Shown here: piece by piece, positions 12,194-27,312 of the stretch
How the letters are laid out: the number at the start of each line of letters is the position of its first letter
Numbering within the stretch: position 1 is the stretch's first letter
Assembly: GCA_048938855.1 (NCBI GenBank)
Contig: JBHLLT010000006.1
Coordinates: 41,986 to 105,985, forward strand
Direction of reading: 5' to 3'
From: Promethearchaeota archaeon
GTDB lineage: Archaea; Asgardarchaeota; Lokiarchaeia; Sigyniarchaeales; SOKP01
DNA: 64,000 nt
Translations under genes and position numbers: made by a program
The notes under the pieces: model-generated
Seen by the model: the letters and a program-made list of their open reading frames with translations, nothing else
Databases searched by the model: none
What the model was told of the DNA's origin: nothing

Positions 12194-13497
12194 ATCAATT
12201 TTTTAAAGATGTTATTTTTTAACTTAACTTTATCAGTTTGTAAAAAAATAGGTTTATGGTTCATTATTCCTTTTATCTTTTCAATAACAAATAATACTTT
12301 CTCTAATAATTCCAAATCGATATCAAGTTTAATTATCTTAGTTCTACCATAATGCCCCATTGATTTGATTTCGGCTGAGATTATACCTGCTAATGATAAT
12401 TCGTTAATATAATCACTTATTCTTCTTTTAGTCAATTGTCGTATTCCTGGTAGTAATTTCCTGATCTCGGAGTAAACATCATAAATATCCCCTGAAATGA
12501 TTACATGATCCGGACTAAATTTTGAAATTAAATATATGGAAGCTAATATAAGTTGTGCTTGTAATGGCATAACCTTGATATATTCCATAATGTGATCATT
12601 TTCTAAATCTTCTTGAGCCTTCTTTACATGTTTGGTGGAAACAATTTTATTTTGATCTCTCTCAGCTAATTCCCCTGCTTTCCTTAATAATTGGAGTGCT
12701 TTTCGGGCATCACCATGTTCCTTTGCTGCTAAAGCAGCACATAAAGGAATAACATCCTCTTTTAAAATATTCTCTTGAAATGCGATTTTAGCTCTTTCAA
12801 TCAAAATATCTTTCAATTCATTTGCGTCATATGAAGGAAAAACTATGTGTTCCTCACCTAAGCTAGAAATTATTCTAGGATCCAAATTTTCTCGGAATTT
12901 TAATTTATTTGAGATACCAATCATGCTTGTTTTACAATTATCCAAATTCTCATTTAATCTTGTTAAATCATATAGAATTTCATTTCCGCCCTTCTTATCG
13001 ACTAACATATCTATCTCATCTAAAACAAGAAAGCATATGGAATACCCAATCTTAGAATCTAATAATCCTAAGAGCTTTTTGAATATAATATCTTTTGGTA
13101 AACCTGTGGGAGGAATTTTCTCCTGTCTGGAAATTGTATTATATATGTGGGCTAAGATACGATAGGGGGTTGAAATTATATTACAGTTAATATAAATCCA
13201 CCAAGGCTTAATTTCTGAATTCTGTTGAGCTAACTTTTGGCTTACATATCTTATAGTTGCCGTTTTTCCTGTGCCCGTCATCCCGTAACATAAAAAATTT
13301 GGAGGAGTATCACCTAATAGAGCACATGCAGTCTTTTCAGCGATATCTCTTATTTGAGAATCACGATGTGGTAACTCATGGGGGATGTAAGATGCATCTA
13401 AAGCATCTCTATTATTAAAGATTTTAGATCCTTTAAGATAGTTCTTATAAAATTTATCGATATTAAATTGGTGATCATGATTATTATTTTTCAACAA
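12190..13497 (-). CDS. cdc6: Orc1/Cdc6 replication initiator
   Basis: YIPHELPHRD, Walker A GMTGTGKT, Walker B VLDEID, HGDARKAL, C-terminal winged helix with GHYGRT. Confidence 0.96.
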   Translation of the reverse strand: MLKNNNHDHQFNIDKFYKNYLKGSKIFNNRDALDASYIPHELPHRDSQIRDIAEKTACALLGDTPPNFLCYGMTGTGKTATIRYVSQKLAQQNSEIKPWWIYINCNIISTPYRILAHIYNTISRQEKIPPTGLPKDIIFKKLLGLLDSKIGYSICFLVLDEIDMLVDKKGGNEILYDLTRLNENLDNCKTSMIGISNKLKFRENLDPRIISSLGEEHIVFPSYDANELKDILIERAKIAFQENILKEDVIPLCAALAAKEHGDARKALQLLRKAGELAERDQNKIVSTKHVKKAQEDLENDHIMEYIKVMPLQAQLILASIYLISKFSPDHVIISGDIYDVYSEIRKLLPGIRQLTKRRISDYINELSLAGIISAEIKSMGHYGRTKIIKLDIDLELLEKVLFVIEKIKGIMNHKPIFLQTDKVKLKNNIFKKLI

Positions 13498-22502: not shown

Positions 22503-23210
22503 ATGAAAAAAGAAAAAATTTTGAGAGATCATTCCGAAAAAATAATATATTCCAAAGAAGATTGGAATCTCTTACAAAAAAAAAGAAAACACGCCATTAA
22601 ACTATTAGAAATATTTGTTAAAGAAGGTTTCAACCCATACGTTCACGGAAGCATTGCCCGTGGTGATACACATGAGAGTAGTGATATTGATCTTGTATTT
22701 TTTCATCAAGTTCCCTCTTTTCAAATAGAACTTATTTTAGATAAGAATGGGTATAACAACTATTTTCGAGAAATTATAATGGCTACTCCCTCAGATTCAA
22801 TTAAACTTTATATATATTTAAGTGAAATTGAGAGTATTACAATTCCTTTATCCAAATTTGAGAGAAAATCTACGGAATTTTATGATTTTGGGGGAAAATT
22901 GGATATAAATCAATTGAAAATGGACATAAGAGTGCCAGGAATTGATAAAAGATTAGTATTAATCAAACCAATCCCCGAAGGACATGAAGAATTTTCCATA
23001 TTTGGCAATGAGGCTAATATCGCAAAAGATATAGGAATAAGTATAGATATTATAAATGAAAGGGAAAAAGTACTTCTGAGAAGGGAAAAATTTGGAAAAA
23101 CTGGAGTTTTTTTAAAAAGATCTATTCAGATGAATGAAACCATAGAAGAAGTTTTAAAAAAAATGGCAAAAAGAAAATCTATTATCAGAGAAAAATTATT
23201 TAAAAAATGA
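22503..23210 (+). CDS. Predicted nucleotidyltransferase (Pol-beta superfamily, archaeal)
   Basis: HGSIARGD..ESSDIDL motif; RVPGIDKRL; GKTGVF. Confidence 0.88.
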   Translation: MKKEKILRDHSEKIIYSKEDWNLLQKKRKHAIKLLEIFVKEGFNPYVHGSIARGDTHESSDIDLVFFHQVPSFQIELILDKNGYNNYFREIIMATPSDSIKLYIYLSEIESITIPLSKFERKSTEFYDFGGKLDINQLKMDIRVPGIDKRLVLIKPIPEGHEEFSIFGNEANIAKDIGISIDIINEREKVLLRREKFGKTGVFLKRSIQMNETIEEVLKKMAKRKSIIREKLFKK

Positions 23211-24358
23211 AAGTAGTAAAATTGGCAAAAACTAGAGGAGAATCTTACTATATTAAAGGAAGAAATATTCCTAAAGGATGTAAGTATTGTCTAAAAGGAT
23301 CTAAAGTGGTTTTATTTTTAAATGGTATATGCCAAAGACCAGAACATTGTTTTTGGTATTGTCCAATATCAGAAGAGAGAAAAGGTAAAGAGATAACATT
23401 TGCTGATGAAATTGAAATCCAAAGTAAAGAGGAATTACTCAAAGAAATTGAAAAAATAAGTGCCCAGGGTATGAGTATCACAGGGGGAGAACCACTTTCA
23501 GAATTAAACCTCGAGAAAACGATTGAGTATATTGAATATGTTAAAAAAGAGAAAGGAAAAAAGTTTCACGTCCACTTGTATACAAACGGTATCAATTTTA
23601 ATGAAAATATTGCCAATAGACTTTCTGTTGCGGGATTGGATGAAATAAGATTTCATCCTGCGGAAAAACATTGGAAAAACATTAATTGGGCCTTAAAAAA
23701 AAATATTAGCGTAGGCGCTGAAGTTCCAGTAATTCCAGGAAATGAATATAGGAGAAATCTTGAGGAATTTGTTTATTATTTGGACAACATTGGTGTTGAC
23801 TTTATCAATTTAAATGAGTTTGAATATTGCTTTCCTAACAGTCAATTTCTTAAAGAACGAGGTTTCAAATTAAAAAAAAATTCAATAGCTGCTGTTATCA
23901 ATAGTCAAGAATCAGCTCTTAGTATAATCCGTAAAATAGGAATCAAGGTCAATATACAAATGCATTTCTGTCCAATAAGAGCCAAAGATTATCATCAATT
24001 AAAGAATAGATATATTCGGAGAGCTAAGAATATTAGATTACCTTTTGAAGTAATCACTGACGAAGGACTCTTATTATATGCTCAAATTGAAGGAGAAAAA
24101 AAAGATCTGGATAAGTTTTATGAAAGTGTGGTATTCAACCTAAAAATTAATGAAAATCAACTCAGCAGAGAAGAAGATCATATTAAAATGCCCTTCTATA
24201 TCTCAATTGAAGATCGAATCGTGGCGTTAATAAAGCAGTATAAATTAAAAGGTTTTATAATTGAAGCTACTCCTTTTAGACGTTTAAAATATAGGCAAAT
24301 TACAGAAAAAACTCCCTTAGAAGTATTTAAGAATGAATATGGATTTAATAGAAATTAA
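23207..24358 (+). CDS. Radical SAM protein (conserved archaeal, uncharacterised)
   Basis: GIC...HCFWYCP cluster motif, ITGGEP, HLYTNG, LDEIRFHP. Confidence 0.88.
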   Translation: MKVVKLAKTRGESYYIKGRNIPKGCKYCLKGSKVVLFLNGICQRPEHCFWYCPISEERKGKEITFADEIEIQSKEELLKEIEKISAQGMSITGGEPLSELNLEKTIEYIEYVKKEKGKKFHVHLYTNGINFNENIANRLSVAGLDEIRFHPAEKHWKNINWALKKNISVGAEVPVIPGNEYRRNLEEFVYYLDNIGVDFINLNEFEYCFPNSQFLKERGFKLKKNSIAAVINSQESALSIIRKIGIKVNIQMHFCPIRAKDYHQLKNRYIRRAKNIRLPFEVITDEGLLLYAQIEGEKKDLDKFYESVVFNLKINENQLSREEDHIKMPFYISIEDRIVALIKQYKLKGFIIEATPFRRLKYRQITEKTPLEVFKNEYGFNRN

Positions 24359-24800
24359 AAACGTAAAATCAAAAGATTTAAAGCAAATCGTAAATCTAGA
24401 AAAAGAAATTTTTAAAAAGAATGCATTTTCTAAAGATTTATTAAAAAAGTTGATAAAAGATAATACACTCTTTTTAAAATTAGAAACTGGAAGAGTAATA
24501 AAAAAAATAATTGGTTTTTTAATAGCTATAAGAGATGAAAGAGAAAGAATAAATATAATTAATTTTCTTATTAAAATTAAATTTCAAAATAGAGGGTATG
24601 GTTCATATCTTCTTCAAAAAGCTATTAGTGAAATAAGAAAAATGAAGGGAATTAAAAAAATCGTACTTAATGTTCAAATAAGTAATTTAGTGGCAATTAA
24701 TTTATATGAAAAATTTAAATTCAAAAAAAACCCAGATATTCTTGAGCATTACTATCAATCAGGTGAAAATGCCTACTTAATGGAATTAGAAATTGACTAA
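24333..24800 (+). CDS. RimI/Ard1-like GNAT N-acetyltransferase
   Basis: FQNRGYGSYLL, LNVQISNLVAINLYEK, YYQSGENAYLM. Confidence 0.88.
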   Translation: MNMDLIEIKNVKSKDLKQIVNLEKEIFKKNAFSKDLLKKLIKDNTLFLKLETGRVIKKIIGFLIAIRDERERINIINFLIKIKFQNRGYGSYLLQKAISEIRKMKGIKKIVLNVQISNLVAINLYEKFKFKKNPDILEHYYQSGENAYLMELEID

Positions 24801-24891
24801 AACTAAAACTTATAAATAAATTCTATTATATTTTTTGTAAAAATCAATTTAATTATTATCTAGATTTTAAATGAAAAGGTGTTAAATAAAA

Positions 24892-25044
24892 ATGGCTCCA
24901 GTAGATAAAGAACTACAAGAAGAAATTAAAAAAGGGGTTACACTTCAAAAAGTCGATGAAGCAGAGTTAAAAAGAAGAGAAGAAGAAAAAAAGAAACGCA
25001 TGGAAGAGTTAGAAAAAGTTAAACAAGCTTTAGGCGAAAAATAA
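24892..25044 (+). CDS. 50-aa WH2-like (actin-monomer-binding motif) micro-protein, absent from the ORF track
   Basis: MAPVDKELQEEIKKGVTLQKVDEAELKRREEEKKKRMEELEKVKQALGEK*; AAGGTG ribosome-binding-like site at 24876; T-rich terminator-like tract downstream. Confidence 0.75.
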   Translation: MAPVDKELQEEIKKGVTLQKVDEAELKRREEEKKKRMEELEKVKQALGEK

Positions 25045-25195
25045 TAGTTCTTCTAAGTTAATTGAGTGAGTTTTTATCTTTTTTATTTATTTTATTTTTC
25101 TTTGAAACATTATTCAAACTAATTTGAATTAAGCTTTTCTTAAATTTTGAATTATTTATTAATAAATATCATTTTTCAATGAGTAAGTTTTAGAA

Positions 25196-26269
25196 TTGAA
25201 AATTCTCAATATAGATCGAAAACGTGGAGAAATAACAGTTAAGACCGAAAGCCTCAATGATTTGTGGTCTTTGTATAATATCATCAATAAAGATGATGAA
25301 GTATCTTCCTTAACTCAAAGAAGAGTTGTTCTTAAAGAAGGAACTTCAGGAGAGCGAAAATTGATGAAACTAAGACTTAAAGTTGAATCTGTATCTTTCC
25401 ATGAATTTTCAAACAGATTAAGAATAAAAGGTAAAATTTTAGAAGGTCCAGAGGATTACGTTAGCTTTGGGGCGTATCATACATTTAATATTGAAGTTTC
25501 TCAAAAATTAACTATAATAAAAGAAAAATGGTTGAATAATGAATTTAATAGGCTTAAAGAAAGCTCAAAATTCGACTCAAACTTTATTACTTTAATAATC
25601 GCAATTGAAACGGGGTTAGCAACAATGGCTATTATCACAAATTTCAGTCATAATCGGATCTCTACCATTAGAAAAAATATACCTGGTAAAAGGTATAAGC
25701 AAACTTATAGAAATGTTGCATTACAAGAATTTTATACTGATATTCAGAAGATTGTAATAGAAAATATAAAAAATACAGAGATTAATCTTATTGTTGTATG
25801 TGGACCTGGAAACATTAAAGACAATTTTATAAAATTCCTTAAAAATAACCCTGCTTTTGATTTTAAAGGCAACATTGAGACATGTCATGCAAGTTCAGGA
25901 ACAGAAAGTGCAATTAAAGAAACTTTAAAATCAAATAAATTAGCAAAATTTAGGGATAGAATTAAAATTTTAGAGGAAGCTGAAAAAATAGAAAACGTTA
26001 TGACACAATTTGCCACTGATCCTGATCTTATCGTTATAGGTTTTGATGAGGTAACTTCTGCTTCTGAAAAAGGAGCCATTAAAGAGTTATTAATAGCAGA
26101 TATATTAATCAGAGGATCCTCTAAAGAAAAAAAGTTAATTATCGAGGAAATTATCACAAACGTGGAAAAAGCGGGTGGAAAAATTCTTATCATGAGTACA
26201 GAAAACTTGACTGGAGAACAACTAGTTGATCTTGGTTCAATATTAGGAATTTTAAGATATAAAATTTAA
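25196..26269 (+). CDS. pelA: Pelota/Dom34 ribosome rescue factor
   Basis: DLWSLYNII, FHEFSNRLRIKGKI, GAYHT and eRF1-like domains. Confidence 0.95.
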   Translation: MKILNIDRKRGEITVKTESLNDLWSLYNIINKDDEVSSLTQRRVVLKEGTSGERKLMKLRLKVESVSFHEFSNRLRIKGKILEGPEDYVSFGAYHTFNIEVSQKLTIIKEKWLNNEFNRLKESSKFDSNFITLIIAIETGLATMAIITNFSHNRISTIRKNIPGKRYKQTYRNVALQEFYTDIQKIVIENIKNTEINLIVVCGPGNIKDNFIKFLKNNPAFDFKGNIETCHASSGTESAIKETLKSNKLAKFRDRIKILEEAEKIENVMTQFATDPDLIVIGFDEVTSASEKGAIKELLIADILIRGSSKEKKLIIEEIITNVEKAGGKILIMSTENLTGEQLVDLGSILGILRYKI

Positions 26270-26277
26270 AAACTAAA

Positions 26278-27312
26278 ATGACTAATAAAATAATTTATGT
26301 AGACGAAAAATCAGAAATTCCCCTATATGGCATAGATTTTCTTGGTATTATTGATAGAGGGACTAATGTCATTGAAATTAAACCTCTAACCTTATGCAAC
26401 TTGAAATGTAAGTATTGTTTTGTAAGTGCTGGAGATTATAATACAAATTTCATAGTTGATTCAAACTATTTAATTAAAAAAATAGAAGAAATTGTTAATA
26501 GTAAAGGGAACTATAAAATTGAAATACATTTTGCTCCATATGGAGAAATACTACTTTACCCAAATCTATTCAAATTAATTAAAGAAATTTGGAAAATAAA
26601 CGGAATTGATACAATATCATTACAATCAAATGGCTTATTACTTAATGAAGACGTTATTAAAAAGTTAGAAGATTCTAACGTAACAAGAATAAATATCAGT
26701 TTAAATTCACTAAACTCAGAAAAAGTTAACTATTTGTGCAATACTGCTAACTATGATTTAAATAGCTTGCTGAAGAACATCTCCCGCTTATTGGATGGCA
26801 AAATTAATGTACTTCTAGCCCCAGTTTGGTTTCCTGGGGAAAATGACAAAGATATTGAAGATATAATTAAATATGTTAAAGCACTAAGGGAAGAAGGTTA
26901 TTCTGAGAAGAATATTCAAATAGGCATCCAAAAATATTTGATTTATAAAACTGGGAGAAAATTGAAGAAAATTAGGCCAAAGACATGGGGTTATTTTTAT
27001 AAGCAATTAGCATTTCTGGAAAATAAATATAACCTCAAATTGAAATTAGGTCCTATTGATTTCGGAATCCACAAAAGGAAAACTGTTGCGTCCTTGAATG
27101 TTCAAAAGAATGATTTAATAAGATTAAGAGTTATTTCTAAAGGACGATGGGAACGTGAATATATAGGGAAAATTGATAATGATTTTGGAATAAAGCTACT
27201 TTTAAACAAATCTATTATCCCATCAGAAAAAATAATTGGAAAGGAAATTCAAGCAAAAATCATAAAAGCTAATTACAAGGATAATATTTTAACAGCATCC
27301 TTTTCAATATAA
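26278..27312 (+). CDS. Radical SAM protein (conserved archaeal)
   Basis: GIIDRGTNVIEIKP, CNLKCKYC. Confidence 0.9.
   Translation: MTNKIIYVDEKSEIPLYGIDFLGIIDRGTNVIEIKPLTLCNLKCKYCFVSAGDYNTNFIVDSNYLIKKIEEIVNSKGNYKIEIHFAPYGEILLYPNLFKLIKEIWKINGIDTISLQSNGLLLNEDVIKKLEDSNVTRINISLNSLNSEKVNYLCNTANYDLNSLLKNISRLLDGKINVLLAPVWFPGENDKDIEDIIKYVKALREEGYSEKNIQIGIQKYLIYKTGRKLKKIRPKTWGYFYKQLAFLENKYNLKLKLGPIDFGIHKRKTVASLNVQKNDLIRLRVISKGRWEREYIGKIDNDFGIKLLLNKSIIPSEKIIGKEIQAKIIKANYKDNILTASFSI

Follow-up and report, generated by a model that had tools for sequence, protein, structure and literature searches.

A conserved 50-residue micro-protein of one Lokiarchaeia order with a WH2-like module and probable binding to Lokiactin

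The stretch of archaeal DNA analysed here (the window, 64,000 nucleotides in full) carries, between the genes of a RimI-type N-acetyltransferase and Pelota, a gene for a 50-aa micro-protein which is probably a Lokiactin-binding, WH2-like peptide with WH2-type binding of actin monomers. The gene is real, protein-coding and under strong purifying selection. Its product appears to be the free form of a WH2-like module, probably confined to one archaeal order, in which a conserved helix is an obligatory part. A relative with ten such modules is here identified, by mass and gene order, as protein GNAMCCOK_04085 of Ca. Lokiarchaeum ossiferum, which in a published co-immunoprecipitation was enriched as much as actin itself.

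Gene and locus

The open reading frame listing of the window gives a frame of 50 codons plus a TAA stop, starting with ATG, at positions 24892-25044 of the forward strand. The features of the locus are:

24333..24800, forward strand: GNAT/RimI-type N-acetyltransferase, the upstream neighbour (Pfam Acetyltransf_1, E 3.8e-13; conserved synteny)
24810..24819, forward strand: AT-rich TATA-like element TTATAAATAA in the 91-nt spacer, a promoter candidate (read from the sequence)
24876..24881, forward strand: Shine-Dalgarno-like AAGGTG, 10 nt 5' of the start codon (read from the sequence)
24892..25044, forward strand: micro-protein gene (open frame, homologues, substitution pattern)
about 25071..25100, forward strand: T-rich tract 3' of the TAA stop, a candidate archaeal terminator (read from the sequence)
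25196..26269, forward strand: Pelota, the downstream neighbour (Pfam eRF1_1/2/3; conserved synteny)

The spacers around the gene measure 91 nt on the rimI side and 151 nt on the pelota side, which together with the Shine-Dalgarno-like site and the T-tract suggest a transcription unit of its own. The open frame, the AAGGTG, the T-tract and the position between rimI and pelota are all as described in the initial annotation, made from the sequence alone. The gene had also been called unannotated there; this does not hold everywhere, as several MAG records list it as 'hypothetical protein'.

A conserved block at window positions 22503-27312 consists of genes for a nucleotidyltransferase, a radical SAM protein, RimI, the micro-protein, Pelota and a further radical SAM protein. 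The peptide starts with M-A-P or M-S, and an N-acetyltransferase gene adjoins; such starts are typical substrates of N-terminal acetylation. Lokiactin is encoded by the host genome (381 aa, Pfam Actin E 3.6e-132), as are two more actin-family proteins.

Conservation and range

A word-index protein search returned 252 homologues of 49-51 aa, nearly all of them labelled hypothetical, and the gene is present in 39 of 41 related genomes. All 21 same-genus loci keep the order rimI, micro-protein, pelota, and in each of them the gene lies in the intergenic region which had been proposed for inspection in relatives; in the sister family, rimI lies upstream of the micro-protein in some genomes. Across the same-genus loci the micro-protein is 80-98% identical, compared with 67-85% for Pelota and 58-75% for RimI, and it is thus conserved more strongly than both of its housekeeping neighbours. 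Variable sites in the 21 orthologues are distributed over the three codon positions as 23/13/41, with a pN/pS of 0.154, and the start codon alternates between ATG, GTG and TTG at one fixed position.

The range of the family was determined using a profile of 45 diverse members (alignment A4) against 301 genomes of the phylum, each at least 70% complete. Matches were obtained in 63 of 68 genomes of the window's family, in 7 of 7 of the sister family, and in 1 of the 226 genomes elsewhere, there with a marginal E-value. In the search of related genomes, the two remaining families of the same Lokiarchaeia order also gave matches. Among the genomes searched, the family was therefore detected in one Lokiarchaeia order only, which includes Ca. 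Lokiarchaeum ossiferum (G055) and Promethearchaeum syntrophicum MK-D1 (G038). Near-identical homologues carry the NCBI labels 'Thor-', 'Hermod-' and 'Hodarchaeota'; a correspondingly wide range was rejected, and the labels were treated as noise because the 301-genome search confines the family to one order. The earlier description of the peptide as a regulator for Asgard actin goes, for the same reason, beyond the range observed. Lokiactin itself is 88-100% identical across the order, which fits a highly conserved partner peptide.

Module anatomy

Two alignments were used for describing the module, one of 18 micro-proteins (A1) and the alignment A4 of 45 diverse members. An AlphaFold2 (AF2) model computed from A4, with a mean pLDDT of 86.7, places a helix at residues 6-14, a non-helical stretch at 15-22 and a second helix at 23-49. 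On the DNA, the parts of the module are:

24907..24933, forward strand: predicted short amphipathic N-terminal helix, residues 6-14, in which L8 and I12 are conserved and which is ended by G15 (AF2, alignments)
24913..24954, forward strand: WH2-like motif L-x3-I-x2-G-x2-L-x-K-V, residues 8-21 (ungapped HMMER alignment to the N-WASP WH2, hhalign)
24958..25038, forward strand: long charged helix, residues 23-49, the most conserved part of the family (AF2, invariant columns)

The near-invariant residues of the charged helix in both alignments are E32, K35, R36, E39 and L40. In the motif, L or M at position 8 and I or L at position 12 are conserved in A1 and A4. A1 has G15 and K20 without exception, and most of A4 has G15 too; L18 is near-invariant, and V occupies position 21 in the majority of members. 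Many members read exactly LKKV, while several members and the profilin fusions described below have P in place of the V of LxKV. The i+1 position of the helix, where canonical motifs have 'LL', is polar in the micro-protein and hydrophobic in the repeat proteins. Conservation of the L..EI..G..L.KV residues in relatives had been set as a check on the initial annotation, and positions 8, 12, 15, 18, 20 and 21 are largely kept; the single charged helix that it placed after the motif is likewise predicted by AF2. The arrangement of a helix followed by an extended segment is that of WH2 and beta-thymosin peptides on actin. A Foldseek search of the PDB with the 50-aa AF2 model gave no match.

A subfamily of singletons from Promethearchaeum, Lokiarchaeum and relatives (alignment A5; L064:1498-1662, forward strand; L070:1483-1647, reverse strand; L073:1255-1419, forward strand) has two more residues in the linker from helix to Leu and has lost the Gly. 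The same proteins have a conserved C-terminal tail ending in G-K-W-E-E, which the window protein does not have. An acidic tail with Trp recalls the acidic, Trp-containing end of WCA regions.

Comparison with WH2 profiles

A strict regular expression for helix-Gly-LxK[VIT] gave 8 open-frame matches in the 3.95-Mb genome, against 7-14 in residue shuffles. A bare match to the motif is no rarer than chance in the host genome, and any significance therefore comes only from conservation and context.

Profile searches were more informative. The A1 profile was run against 177,635 PDB sequences, and the best match was the tandem WH2 chain of N-WASP, 3m3n_W (E 3.2e-5), with the WH2 chains 2vcp_D and 2d1k_C also within the top ten. 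The A4 profile again gave 3m3n_W first (E 0.0083), whereas the Lokiarchaeum/Promethearchaeum subfamily reached N-WASP only at E 0.31. In the HMMER alignment, residues 8-24 match the WH2 repeats of 3m3n_W without gaps, which bears out the claim that the spacing is that of WH2. When 1.84 billion representatives were searched exhaustively, the profile retrieved 70 proteins at E<=1e-3, among them, at E 8.4e-4, a four-fold WH2 protein (P0189, PF02205 E 3.4e-23). The hhalign comparison of A4 with five Pfam-significant WH2 motifs of P0189 covered 19 columns at 53% identity (P 3.4e-4, probability only 38%). At the profile level, the resemblance to WH2 is in our judgement real but short.

The Pfam models are less favourable. 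The gathering threshold is 23.1 bits for WH2 (PF02205) and 32.3 bits for DUF3006 (PF11213). The window protein matches neither Pfam WH2 nor Thymosin even at E<=10. Its relatives score 11-13 bits with WH2, and 4 of the 45 diverse members match it, all below threshold (best E 0.007). Matches below threshold were also found to DUF3006 in 14 of the 45 members (best E 4.1e-4; the window protein scores 12.9 bits) and to the H-NS N-terminal family in 9 of the 45. Thymosin (PF01290) is matched by neither the window protein, its relatives nor the 45 diverse members, and no thymosin chain appeared in the three PDB profile searches (A1, A4 and the Lokiarchaeum/Promethearchaeum subfamily). Features of a protein language model (ESM) put the window protein near clusters in which 26-52% of the members belong to PF01290 (score 0.86), which was taken as a lead only. 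NCBIfam has no family for the micro-protein. The WH2 HMM search suggested along with the initial annotation thus fails at the Pfam threshold, and neither the WH2 nor the thymosin threshold supports the name it had given; what stands is a WH2-like reading at the family level, from the profile matches, the AF2 layout, the predicted profilin fusion and the tandem arrays.

One metagenomic protein of 762 aa (P0187) contains FHA, PP1-binding and two SAP domains together with about 16 WH2-like repeats, and is eukaryotic-looking. It matches Pfam WH2 at E 0.002, below threshold, and the family profile at E 3.7e-4.

Proteins containing the module

Proteins of ten modules (about 480-500 aa) were found in four lineages, namely P. 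syntrophicum, L. ossiferum, one further genus and a lineage of MAGs. Their individual repeats correspond collinearly from protein to protein, nine of them clear and one degenerate, and the repeat unit is about 46 aa. Several of the repeats are textbook WH2 motifs, and two of the proteins have Pfam WH2 matches below threshold.

A second family of about 250 aa (36 found, alignment A3) consists of an N-terminal domain followed by the module. The AF2 model of this domain superimposes on OdinProfilin (5zza_P) with a TM-score of 0.87 on the target, an rmsd of 1.8 A and 27% identity, and also matches LokiProfilin 1 and 2 and a Thor profilin. The structures of OdinProfilin 5zza_P and of LokiProfilin 1 and 2 were each solved with actin. 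Pfam Profilin falls just under threshold for two fusion members (E 2.5e-4) and is on record for two others. On its predicted fold, the N-terminal domain is a true Asgard profilin to which the module is fused. The module is of low confidence in the fusion model and packs on neither flanking domain, as expected of a segment that binds a partner. The module of the micro-protein, the repeats in the ten-module proteins and the segment joined to profilin are homologous. At the C-terminal end of the fusions is a further conserved domain, of about 50 aa (about residues 200-251 in P0224), with the motif Y-I-Y-D-D-F and then a helix; this domain also occurs without profilin (P0164, P0188).

Longer proteins containing the window protein in fused form were absent from the word-index results and were recovered by the exhaustive profile search. 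The module, or its charged-helix half, is in addition fused to leucine-rich repeat (LRR), ribbon-helix-helix (RHH), zinc-ribbon and Ras-like GTPase domains. Four metagenomic proteins (P0180, P0184, P0170, P0182) combine the module with leucine-rich repeats and RHH or a zinc finger, or with RHH alone. If the module binds G-actin, these four could be actin-sensing signalling or transcription proteins, which is speculation.

The only other match of the family profile in the host genome lies outside the window (L024:1006-1956, reverse strand; G000 contig C62, about 12505-13455). It is a 317-aa protein consisting of a Ras/Roc/Arf-type GTPase (Pfam Ras 3.4e-27), the charged-helix half and an RHH tail (DUF6290/NikA-like), and has the charged helix alone in common with the micro-protein. 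A possible correspondence of this GTPase to the 38-kDa 'Arf' in the co-immunoprecipitation treated below was dropped, L. ossiferum having 35 small-GTPase matches and no clear orthologue.

Lokiactin co-immunoprecipitation

Proteins of L. ossiferum were co-immunoprecipitated with a Lokiactin antibody after formaldehyde cross-linking in a recent study (bioRxiv 10.1101/2025.11.30.690169, published as PMC13716822). The discussion of the co-immunoprecipitation there is confined to profilins, gelsolins, an ARF GTPase and BAR proteins, and neither WH2 nor thymosin occurs in the published text (PMC13716822). Among the rows listed on sheet 'CoIP Lokiactin' of Supplementary Table 2, GNAMCCOK_04085 is given with 56.41 kDa, 44 peptides, 70.5% coverage and 366 spectra (10.1101/2025.11.30.690169). 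Its log2(Lokiactin-IP/IgG) is 4.53 with an adjusted p of 0.0021, compared with 4.44 for actin and 3.97 for 2DGel1, the best gelsolin among those rows, and in the listed part of the proteome sheet it is among the roughly 300 most abundant of 3,061 expressed proteins (10.1101/2025.11.30.690169).

The ten-module open frame of L. ossiferum encodes 488 aa (G055 4,726,360-4,727,826) with a monoisotopic mass of 56.414 kDa. The masses in the table were taken as monoisotopic because the 42.75 kDa listed for actin is obtained when the protein is read from codon five. Gene order was used as a second criterion. In Supplementary Table 3, 2DGel1 has tag 04136 and actin tag 03343 (10.1101/2025.11.30.690169), the genes of which lie at 4.784 Mb and 3.925 Mb, respectively. 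Interpolation gives tag 4083 for the ten-module gene; the tags of GNAMCCOK_04085 and 2DGel1 differ by 51, and 47-56 called open frames separate the ten-module gene from that of 2DGel1. On the strength of mass and gene order, and not of the authors' annotation, we infer that GNAMCCOK_04085 is the ten-module protein; the fit is tight. On the same tight grounds the ten-module relative associates with Lokiactin in cells, either directly or via cross-linked partners.

The 55-aa singleton of L. ossiferum (WP_371806818.1, 6.57 kDa) is not among the listed rows; since a micro-protein so rich in K and R would yield few tryptic peptides, this carries no weight. Other strongly enriched proteins in these rows which the paper does not discuss are GNAMCCOK_00333 (37.5 kDa, log2 9.2), 02751 (67 kDa, 7.7) and 04250 (20.6 kDa, 5.1). 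The rows also contain a further micro-protein, 03085, of 4.41 kDa (log2 2.66, 87% coverage), which is very abundant in the proteome.

Discussion

The most economical interpretation is an actin-binding module of which the window gene is the free form, most plausibly holding monomers. The window gene would then be the single-module version of an order-specific module whose mode of binding to Lokiactin is that of WH2 and beta-thymosin peptides on eukaryotic actin. Its LxKV stretch would lie along the actin surface; the charged helix would either extend upwards on the monomer face or strengthen binding electrostatically. With its single module, the 50-aa protein might buffer or sequester the pool of actin monomers, or hand monomers to growing ends. 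Direct binding by the peptide, its site on actin and an effect on polymerisation are inferences. Counting for the actin-monomer reading are the likeness to WH2 profiles, the AF2 layout, the predicted profilin fusion, the tandem arrays and the co-immunoprecipitation of the ten-module relative. Counting against it are the missed Pfam WH2 and Thymosin thresholds, the chance frequency of the bare motif, the near-invariant residues that lie mostly in a charged helix absent from WH2, the polar second hydrophobic position and the occasional P for the V of LxKV. To these must be added the fusions to LRR, RHH, zinc-ribbon and Ras-like GTPase domains, which have no known link to actin, and the fact that the co-immunoprecipitation concerns a ten-module paralogue of another genus and may reflect indirect association.

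The module shares with WH2 (PF02205; N-WASP, WAVE, WIP, MIM) a short amphipathic helix that ends in Gly, an L-x-K-V segment two residues further on at equal spacing, the helix-then-extended layout in the AF2 model, the existence of single and tandem forms and an occurrence beside profilin function. It differs in scoring below the Pfam threshold, in the polar i+1 position of the helix, in a V that is sometimes P, in its restriction to one archaeal order and above all in the obligatory, conserved 27-residue charged helix, for which WH2 has no equivalent. With the beta-thymosins (thymosin beta-4, ciboulot, tetrathymosin; PF01290) it has in common a free peptide of 40-55 aa with N-helix, LKKT-type segment and C-helix, the latter layout being predicted by AF2 for the 50-aa protein, as well as the existence of repeated forms. 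The linker from helix to Leu is two residues longer in the Lokiarchaeum/Promethearchaeum subfamily, and thymosins share a linker longer by two residues. Unlike thymosins, the module gives no Pfam Thymosin match and no thymosin chain among its PDB profile matches, and its C-terminal helix starts directly after LxKV and is much longer and more conserved. A thymosin reading of the module is accordingly a lead.

The ten-module relative of about 490 aa resembles tandem-WH2 nucleators (Spire, Cordon-bleu, VopL/VopF) and nebulin-type repeats in being arranged head to tail, conserved across genera and co-purified with actin. Several WH2-like motifs in tandem and an association with actin, the latter from the co-immunoprecipitation and the assigned tag, occur in the same protein. 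In contrast to tandem-WH2 nucleators, which have motifs of 17-25 aa with short linkers, the archaeal repeat is about 46 aa long and has a helix of its own, and the protein is without dimerisation or KIND-type domains. The profilin fusions have two counterparts, Leishmania profilin, in which an internal WH2-like motif binds the same actin monomer (PMC10907219), and the 'ProGel' fusions of Asgard profilin and gelsolin, a name given in Supplementary Table 3 (10.1101/2025.11.30.690169). In each case one polypeptide combines profilin with a second element for the barbed face of actin, which in the fusion family is putative. The fusion family differs in that its module lies C-terminal of the profilin, after a linker of low confidence, and is followed by the conserved domain of about 50 aa.

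Three other explanations were weighed. That the frame is a chance one, or an RNA element in the rimI-pelota spacer that is not expressed as protein, can be practically dismissed: its small size speaks in favour, while the codon-position pattern (23/13/41) and the pN/pS of 0.154 effectively refute it, more than 250 orthologues have a fixed length, start codons interchange at one position, and paralogous modules occur inside long open frames, one of which was seen by mass spectrometry at 70% coverage. Greater weight, as a minority possibility to be kept in mind, is given to a role apart from actin, in which the charged helix would serve as an interaction or spacer element (an ER/K-type single helix or a coiled coil) for another partner, for instance in translation quality control, at which the position beside rimI and pelota may hint, or nucleic acid binding, and the likeness to WH2 would be convergent or accidental. 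Such a role would account for the best-conserved residues lying in the E/K/R helix, for the fusions with RHH, Zn-ribbon, LRR and GTPase domains and for the rimI/pelota synteny kept across two families, and it is in line with a bare motif at chance frequency and with Pfam, where thresholds are missed and DUF3006 (14/45) and the H-NS N-terminal family (9/45) are matched by more members than WH2 (4/45). It does not account for the ten-module relative being among the most enriched proteins in the listed rows of the Lokiactin co-immunoprecipitation, nor for the predicted fusion to a true Asgard profilin. L18, G15 and the i/i+4 hydrophobic pair are moreover conserved outside the charged helix, profile searches rank WH2 proteins best and not arbitrary coiled coils, and the 91-nt and 151-nt spacers, the Shine-Dalgarno-like site and the T-tract suggest that the gene is transcribed apart from its neighbours.

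The remaining explanation keeps actin as the partner and concerns filaments: each module, some 46 residues in length, would run along a single F-actin subunit, the ten-module protein would be a nebulin- or tropomyosin-like stabiliser or ruler, and the free micro-protein a side-binding or capping factor. At about 46 aa the repeats are indeed long, they are for the most part helical and follow one another at regular intervals in the collinear ten-module proteins, the conserved part is a 27-residue helix, and a cross-linked co-immunoprecipitation cannot tell G-actin from F-actin. We nevertheless consider filament binding unlikely, as the N-terminal part resembles the monomer-binding WH2 motif, profilin, to which the module is fused, binds monomers and so points to G-actin, and no similarity to nebulin or tropomyosin was found in the Pfam or PDB profile searches.

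Current accounts, including a 2026 Nature paper on the motility of L. ossiferum, have Asgard actin regulated mainly by profilins and gelsolins, and in published work WH2-like motifs of the LKKT type are described only between the domains of Asgard gelsolins. Full-text literature searches gave no paper naming a stand-alone WH2/thymosin-like protein in Asgard archaea, nor any naming the identifiers involved. If the monomer-binding reading is right, the peptide, the profilin fusions and the ten-module protein would add a new class of regulators in cultivated model organisms. It is a good deal more doubtful, and in our view improbable, that the free peptides, profilin fusions, ten-module protein and RHH/LRR/GTPase fusions together form, next to profilins and gelsolins, a third class of actin regulators that has gone unrecognised and that shares ancestry with eukaryotic WH2 and beta-thymosin. 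Shared ancestry with eukaryotic WH2 is possible and convergence at least as likely, since a short motif is involved and searches of other Asgard lineages did not recover it; the restriction to one order makes convergence or a lineage-specific invention a serious possibility. Were the wider proposal true, a WH2-like class of regulators would predate eukaryotes, and the RHH, LRR and GTPase fusions could tie transcription and signalling to the pool of actin monomers. The family thus bears on whether short linear actin-binding motifs have a pre-eukaryotic origin or arose by convergence.
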